Source of the DNA: Candidatus Marinacidobacterium sp.
Lineage (GTDB): Bacteria > Acidobacteriota > Vicinamibacteria > Marinacidobacterales > Marinacidobacteraceae
Reading direction: 5' to 3'
Assembly (NCBI GenBank): GCA_965220965.1
Contig: OZ244852.1
Span: 32,001-96,000 of the forward strand
Length of the DNA stretch: 64,000 bases
Positions 7,983 through 18,858 of the stretch are shown piece by piece; the stretch's first letter is position 1; each line of letters opens with the position of its first letter. The notes beneath the pieces were generated by a model that was given only the letters and a program-made list of their open reading frames with translations, ran no database searches and was not told the origin of the DNA. Both the position numbers and the translations under genes were made by a program.

Positions 7983-8790
7983 CCCGCACTCCGGCCAGCT
8001 TCCCGGCGTGGCCGATCGCGCTTCCGAAGGTCGCGAACTGCCAGAACATGCCGGGCAGGATGCCGATCACACAGAGGACGAGCGAGAACTCGGCGACGAT
8101 CGAGACGAAGATCAGGGTGAGCAGCAGCAGGACGTAGTTCCCGACGTGCTGCCGGATCCGGCCGAGGCTGTCCCCGAAGGCGAACCCCGACGCCAGCGAC
8201 CCGGTCGCAGCCAGGTTCGTCAGGCTGGCGGGCAGGACGGCCTTCACCAGCAGCGCCAGCAGGATGAGGAGCAGGATCGCGGAGAGCGCGATCAAGCCGC
8301 CGATCATCATGAGGCCCGGCGCGTCGTCGTGCTCGCCGATCCCGATCAGGAAGCCGCCGAAGAGGAACGGGATGAGCCCCGCCATGACCGCGACCGCGCC
8401 GTGGACCAGCACGATGACGGTGGCCTTCAGGCCGTCGACCAGGAGTCCGCCGAAGTCGCCCGCCCAGTCGGGCATCGGGTGCTCGTCGCCGCGCAGGACG
8501 CCGCGGGCGGTGTGGATCCCGTAGCCCATGAGGGCGAACAGCCCCAGTCCGAAGAACGGGATGAACAGGACCGCGATGGACCCGAGCACGAACTTGTTCA
8601 GGGCCTGCGGATCCCGGAACGGGAGCGCGAGCACGCCCGAGAAGTCGAAGCGCCCGGGGTCCGGTCCGGATCCGGCCGGGGGTGGAGGTGGAGGGGGCGG
8701 CGCGCCGCCTGCGCCGGCAGCGTCGCCGCCGGTCAGGGCGGGGGTCGAACCGGCGTCGGCCGCGCGCTCGGAAGCGTTCGATTCATCCAT
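7975..8790 (-). CDS. Integral membrane protein (DUF4013-like)
   Basis: PF.D..A..KF..G motif, GY...ARGVLRG...MPDW, DGLK, several TM segments; Pro-rich N-terminus. Confidence 0.7.
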   Translation of the reverse strand: MDESNASERAADAGSTPALTGGDAAGAGGAPPPPPPPPAGSGPDPGRFDFSGVLALPFRDPQALNKFVLGSIAVLFIPFFGLGLFALMGYGIHTARGVLRGDEHPMPDWAGDFGGLLVDGLKATVIVLVHGAVAVMAGLIPFLFGGFLIGIGEHDDAPGLMMIGGLIALSAILLLILLALLVKAVLPASLTNLAATGSLASGFAFGDSLGRIRQHVGNYVLLLLTLIFVSIVAEFSLVLCVIGILPGMFWQFATFGSAIGHAGKLAGVRVS

Positions 8791-12246: not shown

Positions 12247-14190
12247 TCAGCGGGCCGAGGTCGGGGTCTCGCCGGCGAGGATGCGCTGGAAGACGCCCAT
12301 CTCGATGTTCCCGCCCGAGACCACGCAGACGAGCTTGCGGGGACGGTCCTCCTCTCCGGCGCGGCGCGGAACCCGGTCCTCGAGGACGGCGGCCAGCGGG
12401 CAGGCCCCGGCGCCTTCGGCGATGACCCGGGCGCGGGCGGCGAGGACCCGGACCGCCTCGGCGACCTCCTCCGGGGAGGTCACCAGCGGCTCGGCGAGCA
12501 GCTCGCGGACCAGCGGCCACATCGGGTCGAGAACGGTGTTGCCTCCGATCCCGTCCACGAAACTGGGGCTCGTGTCGATCCAGCGGGGGGCGCCGTCGGC
12601 CACCGCCGCCGAGACCTTGGCTGATGTCGAGACCTCCACCGGGTGGACCCGGGCGCCCGAGCCCGACTGACGCAGCGCGCTCGAGATCCCGCAGCTCAGC
12701 CCGCCGCCGCCGAACGGGACGAGCACCGCGTCCACCTCCGGTAGGTCCTCGAGGATCTCGAGGCCGGCGGTGCCGTTGCCGGCCATGACCGCCACCTCCT
12801 CCACCGGGTGGACGAACCGGGCGTCGAAGCCGGGGTGGCGGTGCGAGACGATGGCCTCCCACCACTCGGCGAACGGGGCCACCACGATCCGGGCGCCGAG
12901 CGCGGCGATCGCCTCGCGCTTGTTCTCCGGGGAGGTCTCGGGCACCACGACGGTGCACTCGACGCCCCGTTGGCGCGCCATGAACGCCACCGCCTGCGCC
13001 CAGTTGCCGGCGCTCGCGGTCATCACCCCGCGCTTCAGGTCGTCCTCGCCAAGCGAGTCGAAGAGCGCCGCCGCGCCGCGGATCTTGAACGAGGCGAACG
13101 GCTGGATGTTCTCCAGCTTGAGCCAGACCTCGTCCGGCCCGTTCCCCGGGAGCCGGACCATGGGCGTCCGCACTGCGAACGGGGCGATCGCCCGGCGAGC
13201 GGCCTGGATCGACTGGATCGGGATCATGCGCGGCGCGGAGTGTACGGGCCGGAGCCGGTCCCGGCGCCGCTCGGCGGCGGCCACCGTTCGCGGCCAGCTC
13301 TTCTTCAGCAGGACCGACATCCCGCGGTCCCGGAGCAGGCGCCCGCCGGTCTGGCACTTCGGGCAGTAGTTGAACTCGTTCTCGGCGCGGCGCACCCGCT
13401 GGACCCTGGTCCCGCAGTCGGGACACGGTTGGCCGAAGCGGCCGTGGACCGCCATCCCCTCGCGGAAGGCGGTGACTCTCGTGGGGAAGCCGTCGCCGCA
13501 CTCCTCGGCGAGCCGGGAGGTCCATTCCGTCAGGACCGAGACGGTGGCCTCGTGAAGCCGGGCGGTCTCCTCCGGGCTGAGGTTCCGGCACGGCTTCATC
13601 GGCGAGAGCCGCGCCGCGTGGAGGATCTCGTCCGACCAGGCGTTGCCGATCCCGGCGAATCGGGCCGGCTCGGTGAGCGCCCGCTTCAGCGTCCGGGTGG
13701 AGCCCGCCAGCCGGGCGGAGAACGCCGCGAGCGTCGAGCCCGGAACCTCGAGGCCACCGCGGTCGAGTTCCTCGAGCGCCGCCTTGCCTCGGCCCAACCG
13801 GATCGAGGCGCGCTTCTTCCGGCTGCGCTCGCGAAGCCGGAGCGCCCCGCCCTCCGGGCCGTCGCGGTCCGCCGGCCCGAACCGCCACTCGGCCAGGATC
13901 CCCCGCGGCGAGAGCCGGGGCTCGTCGCGGCGGCTCCCGGCAGGCGTCCACGAGAATCGGCCGGCGATCGCCAGGTGGATGGCGAAAAAGTGCTCTCCCT
14001 CGAACTCGAGCGCGAGCTGTTTGCCGATGCGGCGGACGTCCGTGGCCACGAGGCCCACGAGGTCCTCCGGCGGCGGGGCGACCGAGGCCAGCAGGTGGGG
14101 GGAGGCCACGCGGAAGCGGGTGAGCCGGGTCCCGAGGATCCGCCGCCGGATCGCTTCGCGGTAGACCTCGAGGTCGGGAAGCTCGGGCAA
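12247..14190 (-). CDS. Single ORF: Fpg/Nei-family DNA glycosylase (aa 1-~310) fused in frame to a PLP-dependent threonine/serine dehydratase-family enzyme (from Met322, ATG at 13227)
   Basis: MPELPD N-terminus, RRIGKQL, H2TH GIGNAWSDEILHAARLSP, Zn finger CPDC...CPKCQ; then RTP, KLENIQPFASFKIRGA, SAGNWAQ, PFGGGGL, VVSGGN. No stop between the two domains. Confidence 0.88.
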   Translation of the reverse strand: MPELPDLEVYREAIRRRILGTRLTRFRVASPHLLASVAPPPEDLVGLVATDVRRIGKQLALEFEGEHFFAIHLAIAGRFSWTPAGSRRDEPRLSPRGILAEWRFGPADRDGPEGGALRLRERSRKKRASIRLGRGKAALEELDRGGLEVPGSTLAAFSARLAGSTRTLKRALTEPARFAGIGNAWSDEILHAARLSPMKPCRNLSPEETARLHEATVSVLTEWTSRLAEECGDGFPTRVTAFREGMAVHGRFGQPCPDCGTRVQRVRRAENEFNYCPKCQTGGRLLRDRGMSVLLKKSWPRTVAAAERRRDRLRPVHSAPRMIPIQSIQAARRAIAPFAVRTPMVRLPGNGPDEVWLKLENIQPFASFKIRGAAALFDSLGEDDLKRGVMTASAGNWAQAVAFMARQRGVECTVVVPETSPENKREAIAALGARIVVAPFAEWWEAIVSHRHPGFDARFVHPVEEVAVMAGNGTAGLEILEDLPEVDAVLVPFGGGGLSCGISSALRQSGSGARVHPVEVSTSAKVSAAVADGAPRWIDTSPSFVDGIGGNTVLDPMWPLVRELLAEPLVTSPEEVAEAVRVLAARARVIAEGAGACPLAAVLEDRVPRRAGEEDRPRKLVCVVSGGNIEMGVFQRILAGETPTSAR

Positions 14191-14285: not shown

Positions 14286-15068
14286 TTGTCCGAGAGCCAG
14301 TCCAGTTTCGCCGGCCGCGTCGCCATCGTCACCGGAGCCTCCAGCGGGATCGGCCGCGCCACCGCCGCCGCACTGGGCGCCGCCGGAGCCTCGGTCGCGA
14401 TCGCCGCCCGCCGCCCGGAGCGCCTCGAGGCGCTGGCGGGCGAGATCGAAGCCGCCGGCGGCGCCGCCCTTCCGCTGGCCGGGGACGTTACGGACCCGGG
14501 TTTCCGGTCCCGCCTCGTCGGGGAGACGGTGGACCGGTTCGGCGGCCTCGACCACCTGGTGAACTCGGCGGGAGTCATCGCCTTCGGCACGATCGAGGAC
14601 ACGACGCTCGAAGGCTGGCGCGGCATGTTCGCCCTGAACGTGGAGGCGGTCTTCGGGCTGATGAGCCTCGCGGTCCCGCACCTGCTGAAGCGGAGCGGCA
14701 GTGTGGTGAACGTGTCCAGCGTGAACGGGATGCGCTCCTTCCCGGGAGTGCTCGCCTACAACTCGAGCAAGTCGGCGCTGGACCAGCTCACCCGTTGCTC
14801 CGCCCTGGAGCTCGCGGCGAAGGGCGTCCGAGTGAACTCGGTGAACCCGGGCGTCACCCGGACCGAGCTCCACACCGCCGGCGGCCTCGACGCCGAGCGC
14901 TACGCCGCCTTCCTCGAGCGCAGCAAGACGACCCATCCCATCGGACGGGTGGGCACGCCGGAGGAGGTCGCGGGAGTCGCGCTCTTCCTGCTCTCGGACG
15001 CGGCGGCGTTCCTGACCGGAGTCACGATCCCGGTGGACGGCGGACGGCACCTGACCTGCGCCCGGTAG
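14286..15068 (+). CDS. Short-chain dehydrogenase/reductase (SDR)
   Basis: TGASSGIG, VNSAG, NVSS, YNSSK (YxxxK), VNSVNPG, VDGG. TTG start with AGGGAG RBS. Confidence 0.93.
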   Translation: MSESQSSFAGRVAIVTGASSGIGRATAAALGAAGASVAIAARRPERLEALAGEIEAAGGAALPLAGDVTDPGFRSRLVGETVDRFGGLDHLVNSAGVIAFGTIEDTTLEGWRGMFALNVEAVFGLMSLAVPHLLKRSGSVVNVSSVNGMRSFPGVLAYNSSKSALDQLTRCSALELAAKGVRVNSVNPGVTRTELHTAGGLDAERYAAFLERSKTTHPIGRVGTPEEVAGVALFLLSDAAAFLTGVTIPVDGGRHLTCAR

Positions 15069-15184
15069 GTCGGGGGCGCGGCAGGGTGGCTCAGCCGCTG
15101 CGGCGCCCGATTCGAGCTTCGGATCTGCGGGATGACGCGCCGCTCCGCGACACCTTCCTGAAGTCAGCCGAAGGGTCGGCCCCC

Positions 15185-15718
15185 TCAAGCGTTCGCTTCG
15201 CGCCGCAGGTTCCTTGCGGTGGGGGCGGCGCGACCAGGTCCCGCGTCGCGATGGACCCGATCGTTCATCGCCCCGATCAGATCCTGGGGCGGAAGCGGTC
15301 TCCGCTCGGCCCGGGCGCTCGCATCGAGGGCGCGCCGTGTCGCCGGCCTGCTCACTGCGCCGCGTCCGAGGCGCGCGCCTGCTTCCTGGTATTCCTCCTC
15401 GGCGAGAGGGTCGAAGGGCGACCGGCCGTGGGACACATCGAGGAGACGGGAGCGGTTGCGCTGCGTGTCGCCGGAATCGGCCCGGCGGACGACCTCCAGG
15501 ATCGCCATCAGGCGCCGCTCCAGGGCGGGGTTCATGGGCCTGCCGCTGACCCAGAAGAGCACGCTCTGTCGGGAGACTCCGAAGAGTTGCGCAAGTTGCG
15601 CCCAGGTCAATGCTGACCTGCGGCGCAGTTCGGAGATCGCCCGGCTTGTGCTGAGGCCGGCAGCCCGGGCGACGGCTGCGCCCGGTCGACCTGAGGCGGT
15701 CGGATGGTCGTTCGTCAT
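15185..15718 (-). CDS. XRE-family helix-turn-helix protein
   Basis: ISELRRRSALTWAQLAQLFGVSRQSVLFWVSG is an HTH_XRE pattern. ATG at 15718 lies 1 nt after the upstream TGA. Confidence 0.72.
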   Translation of the reverse strand: MTNDHPTASGRPGAAVARAAGLSTSRAISELRRRSALTWAQLAQLFGVSRQSVLFWVSGRPMNPALERRLMAILEVVRRADSGDTQRNRSRLLDVSHGRSPFDPLAEEEYQEAGARLGRGAVSRPATRRALDASARAERRPLPPQDLIGAMNDRVHRDAGPGRAAPTARNLRREANA

Positions 15719-15719
15719 C

Positions 15720-15980
15720 TCAGTCGCTTCCGGCGGCGTCGCCAGTCGCGGCCTGCGCGCGGAGGCGTTCGAGCGCCTCCTCGGCGTAGCCGATGACCGC
15801 CCCTTCGTATTCGGCGACGACGCGTTCGAGGAGCGGGATGGCGCGGGTCTCCCGGAACTCGGCGAGCTGGAAGAAGAGCGTGATCGCGAGTCCGGGCGCG
15901 GGGAAGTAGCGGTCCTCGAGCGAGCGCTCCGCCAGCCGTTTCCGCCCGGCTGTCCTGTTGCGGTGGGAGCTGCGCGCCCT
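15720..15980 (-). pseudogene. Open frame without a standard start encoding a HEAT-repeat-like helical segment (gene remnant, CTG-started small ORF, or read-through extension)
   Basis: Translates as RARSSHRNRTAGRKRLAERSLEDRYFPAPGLAITLFFQLAEFRETRAIPLLERVVAEYEGAVIGYAEEALERLRAQAATGDAAGSD*. Host-like GC3 in the latter part; in frame with the upstream Cys-rich ORF. Confidence 0.5.
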
Positions 15981-16238
15981 TCAGGCCTCACAGTAGTCCT
16001 GACACACGTTGTAGTGCAGGCCGCAGTACAACAGATCCAGGTCGTAGTCCGCCCAGCACTGATCCCGGTCGGACTGGCTTGTGGCCTGACTCAGGCAACT
16101 CGTGCGCGTGGACTGCGCGTTCCATCTGCACGTCCAGTATTCCGAGACGCAGAGCTGACAGAGTTGCGCCGTGGATCGCGTCGGGAGAGTCAATGCCACG
16201 GCAGCCCCCAGGGCCAGGCCCGCTATGAGCCGGATCAT
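15981..16238 (-). CDS. Secreted cysteine-rich small protein (signal peptide + 8 Cys)
   Basis: Signal MIRLIAGLALGAAVALTLPTRSTA, then a 61-aa mature part with C-x2-C-x6-C-x10-C-x12-C-x10-C-x6-C-x3-C. Rich in Y/W/C, unlike GC-rich shadow ORFs. Confidence 0.8.
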   Translation of the reverse strand: MIRLIAGLALGAAVALTLPTRSTAQLCQLCVSEYWTCRWNAQSTRTSCLSQATSQSDRDQCWADYDLDLLYCGLHYNVCQDYCEA

Positions 16239-16256
16239 TTTCGTGGCGGGTCGCCA

Positions 16257-16694
16257 TCAAGAAGGCGGGCGACCTCTTCGGGGGGGGTAGCCCGCGTCGA
16301 GGAAGATCCGGGCGGCCCTCTCCTCCTTCGCGCGGATCCTTCGCCGGAGCGCGTCCATCGTGAACCACTCGGCCGGCTGCGTCCGGATGTCCGCGATCAT
16401 TCGTTCCAGACCATTCCGGCGCATGTAGGCGATGTAGTCCTCGGACCGGCCGGCTTCCCTCCACGCCTTCGCCCTTCGGTCAAAGTCTGCCCGGGTCCGT
16501 TCCTCAAGCGCCTCCCGATGCGCCAGCGAACCGGGGGCGACGCCTCCGTCGCCTCCGGGGCCGGACGATCGCCGCGTCACATTCGGAGCGGGAAGCGTTG
16601 TGGGCGGCTCCCCCTCCGGAATCGGACCGCACGCCACCACGGTGATTGGCCCCGCAGCCACCGCTGCGAGGACCGCGAGAGCAATTCGGTTCAC
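16257..16694 (-). CDS. Putative lipoprotein, unknown function
   Basis: GTG at 16694 with strong RBS AGGGAGG. N-terminus MNRIALAVLAAVAAGPITVVA-C (lipobox-like), Pro-rich linker, then a helical domain. Confidence 0.68.
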   Translation of the reverse strand: MNRIALAVLAAVAAGPITVVACGPIPEGEPPTTLPAPNVTRRSSGPGGDGGVAPGSLAHREALEERTRADFDRRAKAWREAGRSEDYIAYMRRNGLERMIADIRTQPAEWFTMDALRRRIRAKEERAARIFLDAGYPPRRGRPPS

Positions 16695-16865
16695 AGACCT
16701 GTACCTCCCTTGGGACGCCCTGGGCGCATTGGTCGGGGCAGGCGACGCCTCCCACGACATCCCGCGCCGGCGCCGTGTGCGCCGGCGGCTTCATGCCCTG
16801 AGACCCTGTTCATGCCATCACCCCTGAAGGCGACACCCGGCCGCTTCCCCCAGCGGCTCACTGTG

Positions 16866-16894
16866 GGTCTAGCGCAGCGCTACACGGTTGTCAA
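16866..16894 (-). promoter_or_regulatory. Sigma70-type promoter for the lipoprotein/Cys-peptide islet, with a palindrome in the spacer
   Basis: Minus strand TTGACA-17 nt-TAGACC. Inverted repeat TAGCGC-A-GCGCTA at 16870-16882. Confidence 0.55.
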
Positions 16895-16955
16895 GTGACC
16901 TGGGCCATCGGCCATCGGGGCATCAGGGAGCCGCCTCCGCGACAGACACCGCCGA

Positions 16956-16985
16956 TTGACAGGTTCCGCGCCCGGCCCGTAGTCT
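16956..16985 (+). promoter_or_regulatory. Sigma70-type promoter for the CocE/NonD gene
   Basis: TTGACA-18 nt-TAGTCT. Confidence 0.6.
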
Positions 16986-17052
16986 CGGGCCTTCGCCCGG
17001 AGGCGGTCCGACGAGAGCCGCCTTGCCCTGGGCGACGCGCGGGAGGCGACGG

Positions 17053-18858
17053 ATGGCTTCGAAGAGCACGAGGATCCTGATCGGGCTGGGCTCGTTTGCG
17101 GTCGCGCTGATGGTCAGCGCGAGCGCGGCGGCGCAGCCGGTGAGTTGCGAGGAAGTCATGGTCCCCATGCGGGACGGCGTGCAGCTCGCCACCGATGTCT
17201 ACATGCCGGTGAACCAGGGGGACGGCCCGTTCCCGGTCATCCTCGAGCGCACGCCCTATAACAAGGGCGACTGCGACAACGAGCACGCGCTCTACTTCGC
17301 GTCGCGCGGCTACGTCGCGGTCCGTCAGGACGAGCGCGGCCGCTACGACTCCGAGGGCGTCTACTACTGGCTGCTCGACGAGGGCTGGGGCGAGCGTCAG
17401 GACGGCTACGACACGATCGAGTGGGCCGGAACCCAGCCCTGGTCCACCGGGAAGGTCGGCACGATGGGGCTGTCCTTCACCTGCTTCAACCAGTACCTGA
17501 CCGCGCCGACCCGGCCGCCGCATCTGGCCGCGATGTTCTGCGCTCACTCGGCGTCCAACGCCTACAAGGATCTCTACTGGGCGGGCGGGGCGCTCCACAT
17601 GATCATGCCCACCTGGCTGCTGACCCAGAACGAGATGGTCCAGCCGGTGCGGCTCTACGACCCCGGGCGGAGGGGCGGCTACGTCGGCGGCGAGGCGACC
17701 TGGCTCGAATGGCACCAGCGGCGCCTCGAGACCGGGGCCTCCATGTCCCAGAGCATGATCACCACGATGATGACGGACATGATCGAAAACCCGTACTACA
17801 ACGACTACTGGCGGCAGTACGCGGTGGACGAGCACTGGGACGAGATCGATGTGCCGATCTTCCACTACGCCAGTTGGTACGACCGGTATCCGCACTCGCA
17901 GGTCAAGCACTACAACGGCATCCGGACCCAGGGTCGTCCGGGCGCCCGCGACAGCCAGAAGCTCTATATCGGCCCCTGGATCCACGGGGCCGGGATGGTC
18001 ACGAACCGCGTCATCGGCGACATGGACTTCGGCCCGGAAGCGGCGATCGACTACAACGGCCTCCGCCAGCGGTGGTTCGACTACCACCTGAAGGGCATCG
18101 ACAACGGCGTCATGGACGAGCCGCCGGTCGAGATCTTCGTCATGGGCGCGAACACCTGGCGCCACGAGAACGAGTATCCGCTGGCCCGCCAGGTGCTGAC
18201 CGACTACTACTTCCGGGCGGACGCTTCCGGCTCGGTGGCGTCGCTCAACGACGGGACGCTTTCCACGGAGCCGCCGGGGGACGAACCGTCGGTCACCTAC
18301 GCCTACGACCCCCGCGACCCGGTTCCCTCGATCGGCGCCGATCTGTTCGTCCGGCCGAACGGGGCGCAGGACCACCGCCCGGCCGACGTCCGGAGCCTCA
18401 CCTTCACGACCCCGGTGCTGGACCAGGATGTCGAGGTGACCGGCCTTCCGATGGTCGAGCTCTGGGCCTCATCGAGCGCGGTGGACACCGACTGGACCGT
18501 GGCCCTCACCGATGTCCACCCCGACGGCTACTCGCAGATCCTGCGGCAGAACATCCTGCGCGCCCGCTACCGGGAGGGAGACGAGGCGCCCGTCCTGATG
18601 ACTCCGGGCGAGGTCTACCGCTTCCAGATCTGGATGTACCCGGTCTCCAACCTGTTCAAGGCCGGCCACCGCATCCGGCTTACGGTGTCGAGCAGCGCGT
18701 TCCCCAAGTGGTATCCGAACGGCAACACCGGCCGGGAGATGAACGAGGACCTGCCGGTGATCATCGCCAACAACACCGTCTACCTCGACGCCGACCGCCC
18801 CTCGAAGGTCGTCCTGCCGATCATCCCGGCGGGGAGCGCCGCCGCCGAACCGCAGTGA
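17053..18858 (+). CDS. Exported CocE/NonD family hydrolase (X-Pro dipeptidyl-peptidase S15-like)
   Basis: Signal peptide; VPMRDGVQLATDVY, LERTPYNK, QDERGRYDSEG, DGYDTIEW, nucleophile GLSF, WYD, IGPWIH; C-terminal GHRIRLTVSSS. RBS GGAGG. Confidence 0.92.
   Translation: MASKSTRILIGLGSFAVALMVSASAAAQPVSCEEVMVPMRDGVQLATDVYMPVNQGDGPFPVILERTPYNKGDCDNEHALYFASRGYVAVRQDERGRYDSEGVYYWLLDEGWGERQDGYDTIEWAGTQPWSTGKVGTMGLSFTCFNQYLTAPTRPPHLAAMFCAHSASNAYKDLYWAGGALHMIMPTWLLTQNEMVQPVRLYDPGRRGGYVGGEATWLEWHQRRLETGASMSQSMITTMMTDMIENPYYNDYWRQYAVDEHWDEIDVPIFHYASWYDRYPHSQVKHYNGIRTQGRPGARDSQKLYIGPWIHGAGMVTNRVIGDMDFGPEAAIDYNGLRQRWFDYHLKGIDNGVMDEPPVEIFVMGANTWRHENEYPLARQVLTDYYFRADASGSVASLNDGTLSTEPPGDEPSVTYAYDPRDPVPSIGADLFVRPNGAQDHRPADVRSLTFTTPVLDQDVEVTGLPMVELWASSSAVDTDWTVALTDVHPDGYSQILRQNILRARYREGDEAPVLMTPGEVYRFQIWMYPVSNLFKAGHRIRLTVSSSAFPKWYPNGNTGREMNEDLPVIIANNTVYLDADRPSKVVLPIIPAGSAAAEPQ

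Follow-up and report, generated by a model that had tools for sequence, protein, structure and literature searches.

The window analysed here is a stretch of 64,000 nucleotides from contig OZ244852.1 of a Candidatus Marinacidobacterium genome. Its minus strand carries, at 15981..16238, a gene for a precursor of a small eight-cysteine protein that is predicted to fold as a helical hairpin. The gene starts with ATG at 16238, encodes 85 amino acids and ends with a TGA stop codon at 15981-15983. The first 24 residues, MIRLIAGLALGAAVALTLPTRSTA (16167..16238, minus strand), were read by eye as a signal peptide, with one basic residue, a hydrophobic core and small residues at positions -3 and -1 (S-T-A), putatively cleaved after STA and followed by QLC. 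The mature part (15984..16166, minus strand) would be an acidic protein of 61 amino acids, with a pI of 4.2 and a net charge of -5.2, whose assignment as a hairpin rests on an AlphaFold2 model and on conserved cysteines. These cysteines lie at mature positions 3, 6, 13, 24, 37, 48, 55 and 59, and are separated by gaps of 2-6-10-12-10-6-3. The central pair, C24-x12-C37, would staple the turn, CLSQATSQSDRDQC (16056..16097, minus strand), which is the part that resembles the DC-EC repeat of the secretion protein CagY. An earlier, sequence-only reading of the window had reported an open reading frame (ORF) with a Sec-type signal, a 61-residue mature part and near-mirror cysteine gaps. The frame and the sequence quoted for it read exactly as claimed, and counting along the mature peptide gave the same gaps.

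Several lines of evidence indicate that the frame is a gene. The G+C content of the hairpin ORF at its three codon positions is 0.55, 0.52 and 0.80, and third-position G+C is highest in this frame, as expected for a coding frame in such a genome. Overall, the ORF is 62.7% G+C compared with 72.4% for the window and 0.72 for one neighbouring gene. A Nei-Gojobori comparison with the only homologue for which DNA was used, at locus L002 of a second genome (G012), gave a ratio of non-synonymous to synonymous substitution rates (dN/dS) of 0.24 over its full length and 0.15 over the mature part alone, at a dS of 1.23. By this measure the hairpin ORF is a protein-coding gene under purifying selection. 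An identical 85-residue protein has been called in a public collection (P0001), and all full-length relatives have a comparable hydrophobic N-terminus that ends in Ala right before the first cysteine region. The sequence-only reading had proposed a search of the genome for the cysteine pattern; the six-frame translation of all 3.25 Mb contains a single instance of the full pattern, and the turn motif (CLSQATSQSDRDQC type) is also single-copy. This single occurrence, together with the conservation of the pattern in relatives, places it beyond chance. We have little doubt that the gene specifies a real exported hairpin protein. Read-through of the TGA at 15981-15983 into the in-frame ORF at 15720-15980 was considered and rejected, because several homologues also terminate right after CEA or CDA. 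Matches of the peptide to NCBIfam Shiga-toxin B-subunit models (E about 0.1) and to the Pfam Plexin PSI domain (E 0.056) were at noise level and were disregarded. A consensus scan of the locus yielded no promoter-like or terminator-like sites.

Relatives of the hairpin were sought by two kinds of search. A word-indexed search of 5.8 billion clusters returned, besides the protein itself, a single relative (P0002, 65% identity). An exhaustive HMMER search of 1.84 billion representatives with a three-sequence profile returned five proteins at E≤0.001, four of them at E≤1e-10. This search was run without length restriction, and since all five matches are between 60 and 98 amino acids long, no fused form of the hairpin was seen. 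The clusters of these matches and that of P0002 contain 16 member sequences. Including that of the window there are 10 distinct mature cores, and the others share 32 to 79% identity with the window core. Homologues that keep the cysteine pattern therefore exist, as the sequence-only reading required: all eight cysteines are present in 8 of the 10 cores, with x4 for x3 as the final gap in one of these eight. C3 to C7, and the C-x10-C spacing in both helices, are invariant in all 10, and C1, C2 and C8 each vary in one member. P0002 lacks C2; P0008 lacks C1 and C8 but has one additional cysteine, making seven in total. No His or Met is conserved across the cores. The window protein has CQLC where several relatives have CQHC, and its signal begins MIRL where those of relatives begin MKRL.

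The family is tiny and carries no annotation. All records with names are labelled as Acidobacteria or Acidobacteriota metagenome-assembled genomes. Credible matches to the hairpin were obtained in 2 of 28 genomes of the family to which the organism belongs, 2 of 55 of the order and 2 of 401 sampled from the class, and a sample of 401 genomes from the phylum contained a credible match only in the genome of the window itself. A second row of the phylum sample fell below E 0.001 (7.2e-4, with two in-frame stops) and was taken as noise. When 61 relatives were searched with the single sequence, 44 genomes gave matches at E≤1 and only the window genome (G000) and G012 did better than E 0.005; the other matches look like noise. 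One unpublished genome, G036, enters these figures solely among the genomes with no credible match. The metagenome scan that the sequence-only reading had proposed produced one contig match (L010), which is not a relative but a false positive, a DNA methyltransferase sharing the string YVSEY. A viral contig collection contained no relative of the hairpin or of the lipoprotein encoded beside it.

To model the fold we used AlphaFold2 on the mature window protein, with an alignment of eight rows. The model consists of two helices, residues 2-27 and 31-60, joined by a three-residue loop (28-30), with a mean predicted local distance difference test score (pLDDT) of 95.5 and a predicted template modelling score of 0.78. 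At 100 degrees per residue, arithmetic on the sequence places the four cysteines of each helix within about 60 degrees of one another, on one helical face. The antiparallel helical hairpin proposed in the sequence-only reading is supported by the model, and its placing of the cysteines on one face by this arithmetic. A two-helix hairpin with mirrored cysteines on one face is predicted with confidence. Foldseek found no match to the model in the PDB at E≤0.001. A wide fold search with VIA returned generic helical hairpins at no more than 12% identity and no disulfide-rich relative; its best Z score of 8.5 lies in a range common for helical models and excludes no family. In the ESM Atlas both the hairpin and the lipoprotein scored below 0.85, which yields leads only.

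The positions of the cysteines bear on how they might be joined. Those of the pairs 24 and 37, 13 and 48, and 6 and 55 each add up to 61, and 3 and 59 add up to 62; they are therefore placed as an antiparallel ladder requires. In P0008, C1 and C8 are missing together, as a C1-C8 pair would lead one to expect, although this is a single event. Against the ladder stands P0002, in which loss of C2 alone leaves C7 unpaired. P0002 and the seven-cysteine P0008 together indicate that an unpaired cysteine is tolerated and that the outer rungs are dispensable. The sequence-only reading had proposed four nested disulfides; of this, the mirrored arrangement stands, P0002 does not conform, and the bonds stay inferred. 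On balance a ladder of four disulfides, C4-C5, C3-C6, C2-C7 and C1-C8, seems somewhat more likely than not in the modelled hairpin. The genome appears able to form such bonds, since it encodes VKOR (68.9 bits) and DsbA-like Thioredoxin_4 (70.2 bits) domains in one open frame of 434 amino acids outside the window (G000:C1:518598-519773, plus strand). This frame is likely to be the extracytoplasmic disulfide-forming enzyme of the organism. A second Thioredoxin_4 match lies elsewhere in the genome.

Upstream of the hairpin gene, on the common strand and 18 bases away, is a gene for a lipoprotein of 145 amino acids (16257..16694, minus strand) that had gone unnoticed in the sequence-only reading. 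It starts with GTG at 16694, nine bases after a Shine-Dalgarno-like GGGAGG (16704..16709 in the minus-strand sequence), and encodes the lipobox VVAC, with the Cys codon at 16629-16631. The Ala-Cys of the lipobox is invariant in all seven partner sequences. The 145-residue form has been called in a public collection (P0003), and a dN/dS of 0.175 points to purifying selection. In the AlphaFold2 model, residues 1-49, comprising the signal and then a linker, have pLDDT below 50, and residues 51-130 form a block with a mean of at least 87. The predicted head consists of three helices (residues 57-133) and is basic, with a pI of 10.9 and a charge of +6.9, opposite to the -5.2 of the acidic hairpin. 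A single-sequence search with the lipoprotein found only itself; a profile search added five relatives, which are 157 to 159 amino acids long. No significant match was obtained in Pfam, NCBIfam, PADLOC or PHROGs. The best VIA fold match was generic (Z 7.8), and the best match in a profile search of the PDB, to TraK at E 0.0074, covers profile positions 26-78, which are mostly linker.

The two genes also occur together elsewhere. In G012 they adjoin, with a 4-base overlap, in surroundings that differ from those in the window: a sigma-70-type gene and a tRNA-Leu gene lie upstream, and unrelated ORFs downstream. Six cases of a hairpin and a partner come from contigs of equal size (658676, 55063, 58264, 5994, 11598 and 3986123), one of which is the G012 contig. 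Equal sizes were taken to indicate one shared contig, a step that stops short of adjacency. Judging from gene order and these contig sizes, linkage between hairpin and partner is tight in two genomes and probably extends to five further records. Two findings count against a fixed association. Genome G005 has a homologue of the partner (E 4.9e-43) whose context is different again; neither a hairpin gene nor a remnant of one adjoins it, and the genome as a whole contains no match to the hairpin. In addition, the divergent hairpins P0005 to P0008 and P0023 have no contig size in common with any partner found. On this distribution, pairing with the lipoprotein is not obligate. The orphan partner of G005 (L028 1501..1977, plus strand; G005:C1:2041350-2041808) has 158 amino acids and the lipobox WVAC, and by eye MoaD/MoaE-like ORFs adjoin it. 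A complex prediction for the hairpin and the lipoprotein head scored 0.02, for which the tool gives no verdict and which carries no weight either way. Whether the two proteins function as a pair is, in our estimate, evenly balanced.

The genes that flank the locus, encoding an SDR protein (14286..15068) and an S15 peptidase (17023..18858), are conserved in both same-genus genomes, G001 and G002, with 77 to 83% DNA identity. The gap between them measures approximately 2.1 kb in the window, 4.4 kb in G002 (L018) and 3.7 kb in G001 (L019). In the window the gap (15070..17020) contains the lipoprotein gene, the hairpin gene, an 86-codon frame that has no canonical start and a gene for a helix-turn-helix (HTH) protein. 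By eye, the gap holds unrelated ORFs of 445 and 924 amino acids with P-loop motifs in G002, and unrelated ORFs of 580, 108 and 298 amino acids in G001. The hairpin module is thus accessory and patchy, and sits in a variable gap. The gap ORFs of G001 and G002 have, by eye, a defence-island-like look. There is no tRNA gene between positions 8000 and 24000 of the window, and no convincing flanking repeats were found at the locus. The statement of the sequence-only reading that no modifying enzyme for a ribosomally synthesised and post-translationally modified peptide is adjacent holds good, the neighbours being the HTH regulator, the SDR protein, the family-less lipoprotein and the S15 peptidase. 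The hairpin precursor thus has no such enzyme nearby, and it carries a Sec signal instead of a leader.

The 86-codon frame (15720..15980, minus strand) directly follows the TGA of the hairpin gene in the same frame, and the ATG of the next gene stands one base after its stop (TGAgATG). Its third-position G+C reaches 0.90 in 180-base windows. No ATG, GTG or TTG in it gives 40 amino acids or more; a CTG at 15935 would give 71. It has no family match and no relative in 30 related genomes, and may represent either a remnant or a small gene whose start is unusual. The next gene (15185..15718, minus strand) encodes a protein of 177 amino acids with an XRE/HTH_3-type helix-turn-helix near its N-terminus. 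Its NCBIfam matches, which are MqsA/HipB-antitoxin-like, are weak (E 0.002 to 0.02), and it may form a pair with the small upstream frame. Farther off, 12247..14190 (minus strand) is a single ORF of 647 amino acids with Fpg/Nei DNA glycosylase domains (1-281) and a pyridoxal phosphate-dependent PALP domain (338-626), which would be an unusual fusion unless two genes share the frame.

These observations can be assembled into a model of how the module might work. The first gene would supply a membrane-tethered lipoprotein that carries its basic three-helix head on a long, low-confidence linker, and the second a Sec-exported acidic protein of 61 amino acids. Signal peptidase I would cut the hairpin precursor after STA, and the N-terminal Gln might afterwards be cyclised. 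Outside the cytoplasm the VKOR/DsbA-like system of the genome would oxidise the chain, which would fold as an antiparallel two-helix hairpin whose cysteines, at core positions, bridge the helices as the ladder C4-C5, C3-C6, C2-C7, C1-C8. The product would be a rod that is highly stable, resists proteases and exposes an acidic surface rich in aromatic residues. It could bind the head of the lipoprotein, and most probably serves as a binding ligand, either within the envelope or extracellularly, with or against its basic partner. Taken as a whole, the proposal that this is a two-gene accessory module of a few Acidobacteriota-labelled genomes, in which an exported stapled hairpin and a tethered lipoprotein form an envelope or extracellular ligand pair, seems to us as probable as its opposite.

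As to what such a pair might do, our leading guess is a secreted antagonistic peptide with an immunity or receptor lipoprotein. The circumstantial points in favour of a bacteriocin and its immunity lipoprotein are the two-gene module, its patchy distribution, the variable locus and the orphan lipoprotein of G005. The last of these fits orphan immunity and fits equally a lipoprotein with a function of its own. Other observations weigh against it. As regards the model as a whole, no RNA run containing the stretch is among the listed runs (two DNA runs contain it). The peptide is acidic, unlike most membrane-active antimicrobial peptides, and dN/dS gives no hint of diversifying selection, a common feature of toxin/immunity pairs. 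In a diderm cell an extra route across the outer membrane would also be required. A toxin/immunity role specifically is rather unlikely in our view, though it is still our leading guess. Bolder, and less probable again, is the idea that the hairpins form a bacterial class of their own, the disulfide-ladder alpha-hairpins, which has escaped description so far. Related to the unit multiplied in CagY but free-standing and with four rungs, such a hairpin would serve soil or sediment Acidobacteriota as a hyperstable secreted antagonist or signal, with the tethered lipoprotein as immunity protein or receptor.

The alternative that survives best, although we still consider it unlikely, gives the hairpin no part in conflict. 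It would be a regulatory or structural accessory of the lipoprotein in the envelope, for example a stable periplasmic ligand modulating a stress-sensing or anchoring lipoprotein. The genes are translationally coupled or very close, the charges of the hairpin and the lipoprotein head are opposite, and both genes are under purifying selection, all of which this explanation accommodates. It would also lead one to expect a lipoprotein without a hairpin, as in G005, if the lipoprotein holds the main function. However, so sparse and patchy a distribution in a shifting context is unusual for housekeeping envelope functions, and no sensor kinase or sigma/anti-sigma pair is conserved next to the genes, the sigma-70-type gene being found only in G012.

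The cysteines might instead remain reduced and bind metal. Lining the core of a dimer arranged as a four-helix bundle, they could store or buffer Cu(I), Zn or Cd by thiolate coordination, in the manner of Csp or Cox17. Csp proteins are four-helix bundles with a cysteine-lined core, and Csp1 is exported by the Tat pathway. All eight cysteines of the hairpin face one side at core positions, according to the helical arithmetic and the AlphaFold2 model, and members with seven cysteines exist, which a pure disulfide ladder does not predict; there is also a faint match to Pfam COX17 in one of 12 members (E 0.88, not significant). The monomer is, however, predicted as a two-helix hairpin in which the cysteines mirror each other within the one chain. 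None of the signals contains a twin-arginine motif (MIRL here, MKRL in relatives), and the chain would therefore cross the membrane unfolded, into a compartment with VKOR/DsbA-like oxidases. No Csp appeared among the fold or sequence matches, no His or Met is conserved, and neither known gene context includes metal-resistance genes. We regard a metal-binding role as improbable.

A redox role has less in its favour still, and we give it little credence. The protein would be a miniature thiol-disulfide oxidoreductase or redox sensor, with a structural twin C-x10-C and a redox-active N-terminal C-x2-C, comparable to Mia40, which combines a CPC motif with a twin CX9C hairpin. C3 to C6 are invariant, variation being confined to C1, C2 and C8, each in one member, and CQHC, present in several members, is reminiscent of CPHC in DsbA. 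NDUFA8, a CHCH subunit of complex I, matched at E 7e-4 while the profile included signal-peptide columns, but this dropped to E 0.13 once they were removed. Loss of C2 in P0002, or of C1 in P0008, would moreover abolish any C-x2-C activity, and the joint loss of C1 and C8 in P0008 is better explained by a structural C1-C8 bond. The weakest reading, that the frame is a chance ORF, might appeal to the many long spurious ORFs of GC-rich genomes, to the lack of listed RNA runs containing the stretch and to that of a clear Shine-Dalgarno sequence before the ATG in the minus-strand sequence, but it is already contradicted by the conservation data (a dN/dS of 0.15 at a dS of 1.23, and a cysteine pattern kept by homologues at 32 to 79% identity), as well as by the GC3 peak in this frame and a pLDDT of 95.5 from eight rows only, and can be set aside.

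Mitochondria, plants and venoms all provide known examples of small helical hairpins rich in disulfides. In the searchable literature, from which most subscription journals are absent, we found no description of the present family or of free-standing bacterial multi-disulfide helical hairpins. The disulfide-stapled alpha-hairpin is thus a known kind of fold; what is new is a bacterial version that stands alone, has four predicted rungs and comes with its own lipoprotein. Should the ladder prove real, the protein would offer a natural scaffold that is compact, probably of high stability and suited to production in the bacterial periplasm, and a simple model for the CagY repeat unit, which has no experimental structure. 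Together, hairpin and lipoprotein make a concrete two-protein system, from a phylum that has received little study, in which to look for a new kind of toxin/immunity or ligand/receptor pair of the envelope. Were they indeed a ladder-class antagonist or signal and its partner, they would add to the bacterial peptide effectors a new family that is exported by Sec, rich in disulfides and unmodified, and would give protein engineering a minimal scaffold of natural origin. The impact is uncertain, because the family is tiny.

Among known stapled hairpins, the plant alpha-hairpinins and the animal Cs-alpha/alpha toxins are small secreted two-helix hairpins with CX3C pairs and nested disulfides, and the outer motifs of the present protein, C-x2-C and C-x3-C, recall these pairs. 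Those peptides are eukaryotic, have two disulfides in about 30 to 40 residues and are mostly basic, whereas the hairpin protein is acidic; fold and sequence searches gave no match to either group. The CHCH proteins, such as Cox17, Mia40 and NDUFA8, share the design of a helical hairpin in which two parallel inter-helix disulfides arise from two C-x9-C motifs, and are oxidised outside the cytosol, as is proposed for the hairpin protein. In the present protein the invariant core is a twin C-x10-C (C3/C4 and C5/C6), with x10 rather than x9 in both helices of the predicted hairpin, two outer rungs would be added, and export is by the bacterial Sec route. Beyond the COX17 and NDUFA8 matches already mentioned, COX6B of Pfam reached E 0.96, again in one of 12 members. 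The resemblance to CHCH proteins is probably one of design only.

Bacterial proteins also offer comparisons. HcpB and HcpC of Helicobacter are described as built of Sel1-like repeats with one disulfide per helix pair (PMC2581425). These exported proteins, bacterial like the hairpin protein, have antiparallel helices tied pairwise by a disulfide, as is predicted for the hairpin; they differ in being multi-repeat solenoids of 36-residue units with one bridge each (PMC2581425). Pfam and PDB searches gave no similarity to HcpB or HcpC.

The sole strong match of the family profile among 177,635 distinct PDB sequences was the middle repeat region of Helicobacter pylori CagY (PF07337, CagY_M). The sequence-only reading had judged the peptide closer to eukaryotic toxins or pheromones than to typical bacterial proteins. 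This view is not supported, as the only resemblance found at the sequence level is to a bacterial repeat and the fold searches returned generic hairpins alone. The full-length profile gave this match an E-value of 2.8e-12 and the mature-only profile one of 3.3e-19 (72 bits), but the statistical weight of the match is far below these values because they sum 28 stretches of closely related repeats. The best single CagY repeat scored 16.3 bits (i-E 0.076), on a par with the 15.6 bits of the best unrelated protein, NDUFA8. Conversely, the best member tested with the Pfam model, P0007, scored 17.8 bits (E 0.0025), short of the CagY_M gathering cut-off of 21 bits. Five of 12 members matched this model at E≤1, the window protein not among them. 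Six-frame searches with the model gave no match at E≤10 in any of four genomes (G000, G012, G005 and G002), and weak matches, none above the cut-off, in 8 of 14 control genomes. As single-repeat scores and the Pfam model both stay weak, we grade the likeness to CagY at motif level only; on these scores it is a resemblance of motif, not membership of the family.

What is shared is the turn. The alignment covers profile positions 19-45, where the consensus C-[LIV]-x2-A-x-T-x2-E-[RK]-x2-C corresponds to CLSQATSQSDRDQC in the window protein. As in the DC-EC repeat, two cysteines 12 residues apart bracket a helix-loop-helix, with the loop at 28-30 between C24 and C37 in the AlphaFold2 model. According to published experiments, the cysteines of isolated CagY motifs matter for stability and assembly (PMC2581425). 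Modelling in a second paper places one intrachain disulfide in each CagY module, from a short helix to the next helix across a three-residue spacing (PMC10706595). C4-C5 of the hairpin is predicted to have that geometry. CagY itself is a Lys/Glu-rich type IV secretion protein of 1927 amino acids that multiplies the module in tandem arrays, with one disulfide per module. In the present genome the motif is single-copy, no fused form was among the five HMMER matches, and no tandem array within a large VirB10-type secretion protein was found. A remote relationship between the hairpin family and the CagY repeat is possible on the shared turn, the one multiplying a single-rung module many times over, the other a free-standing hairpin of 61 amino acids with four predicted rungs.

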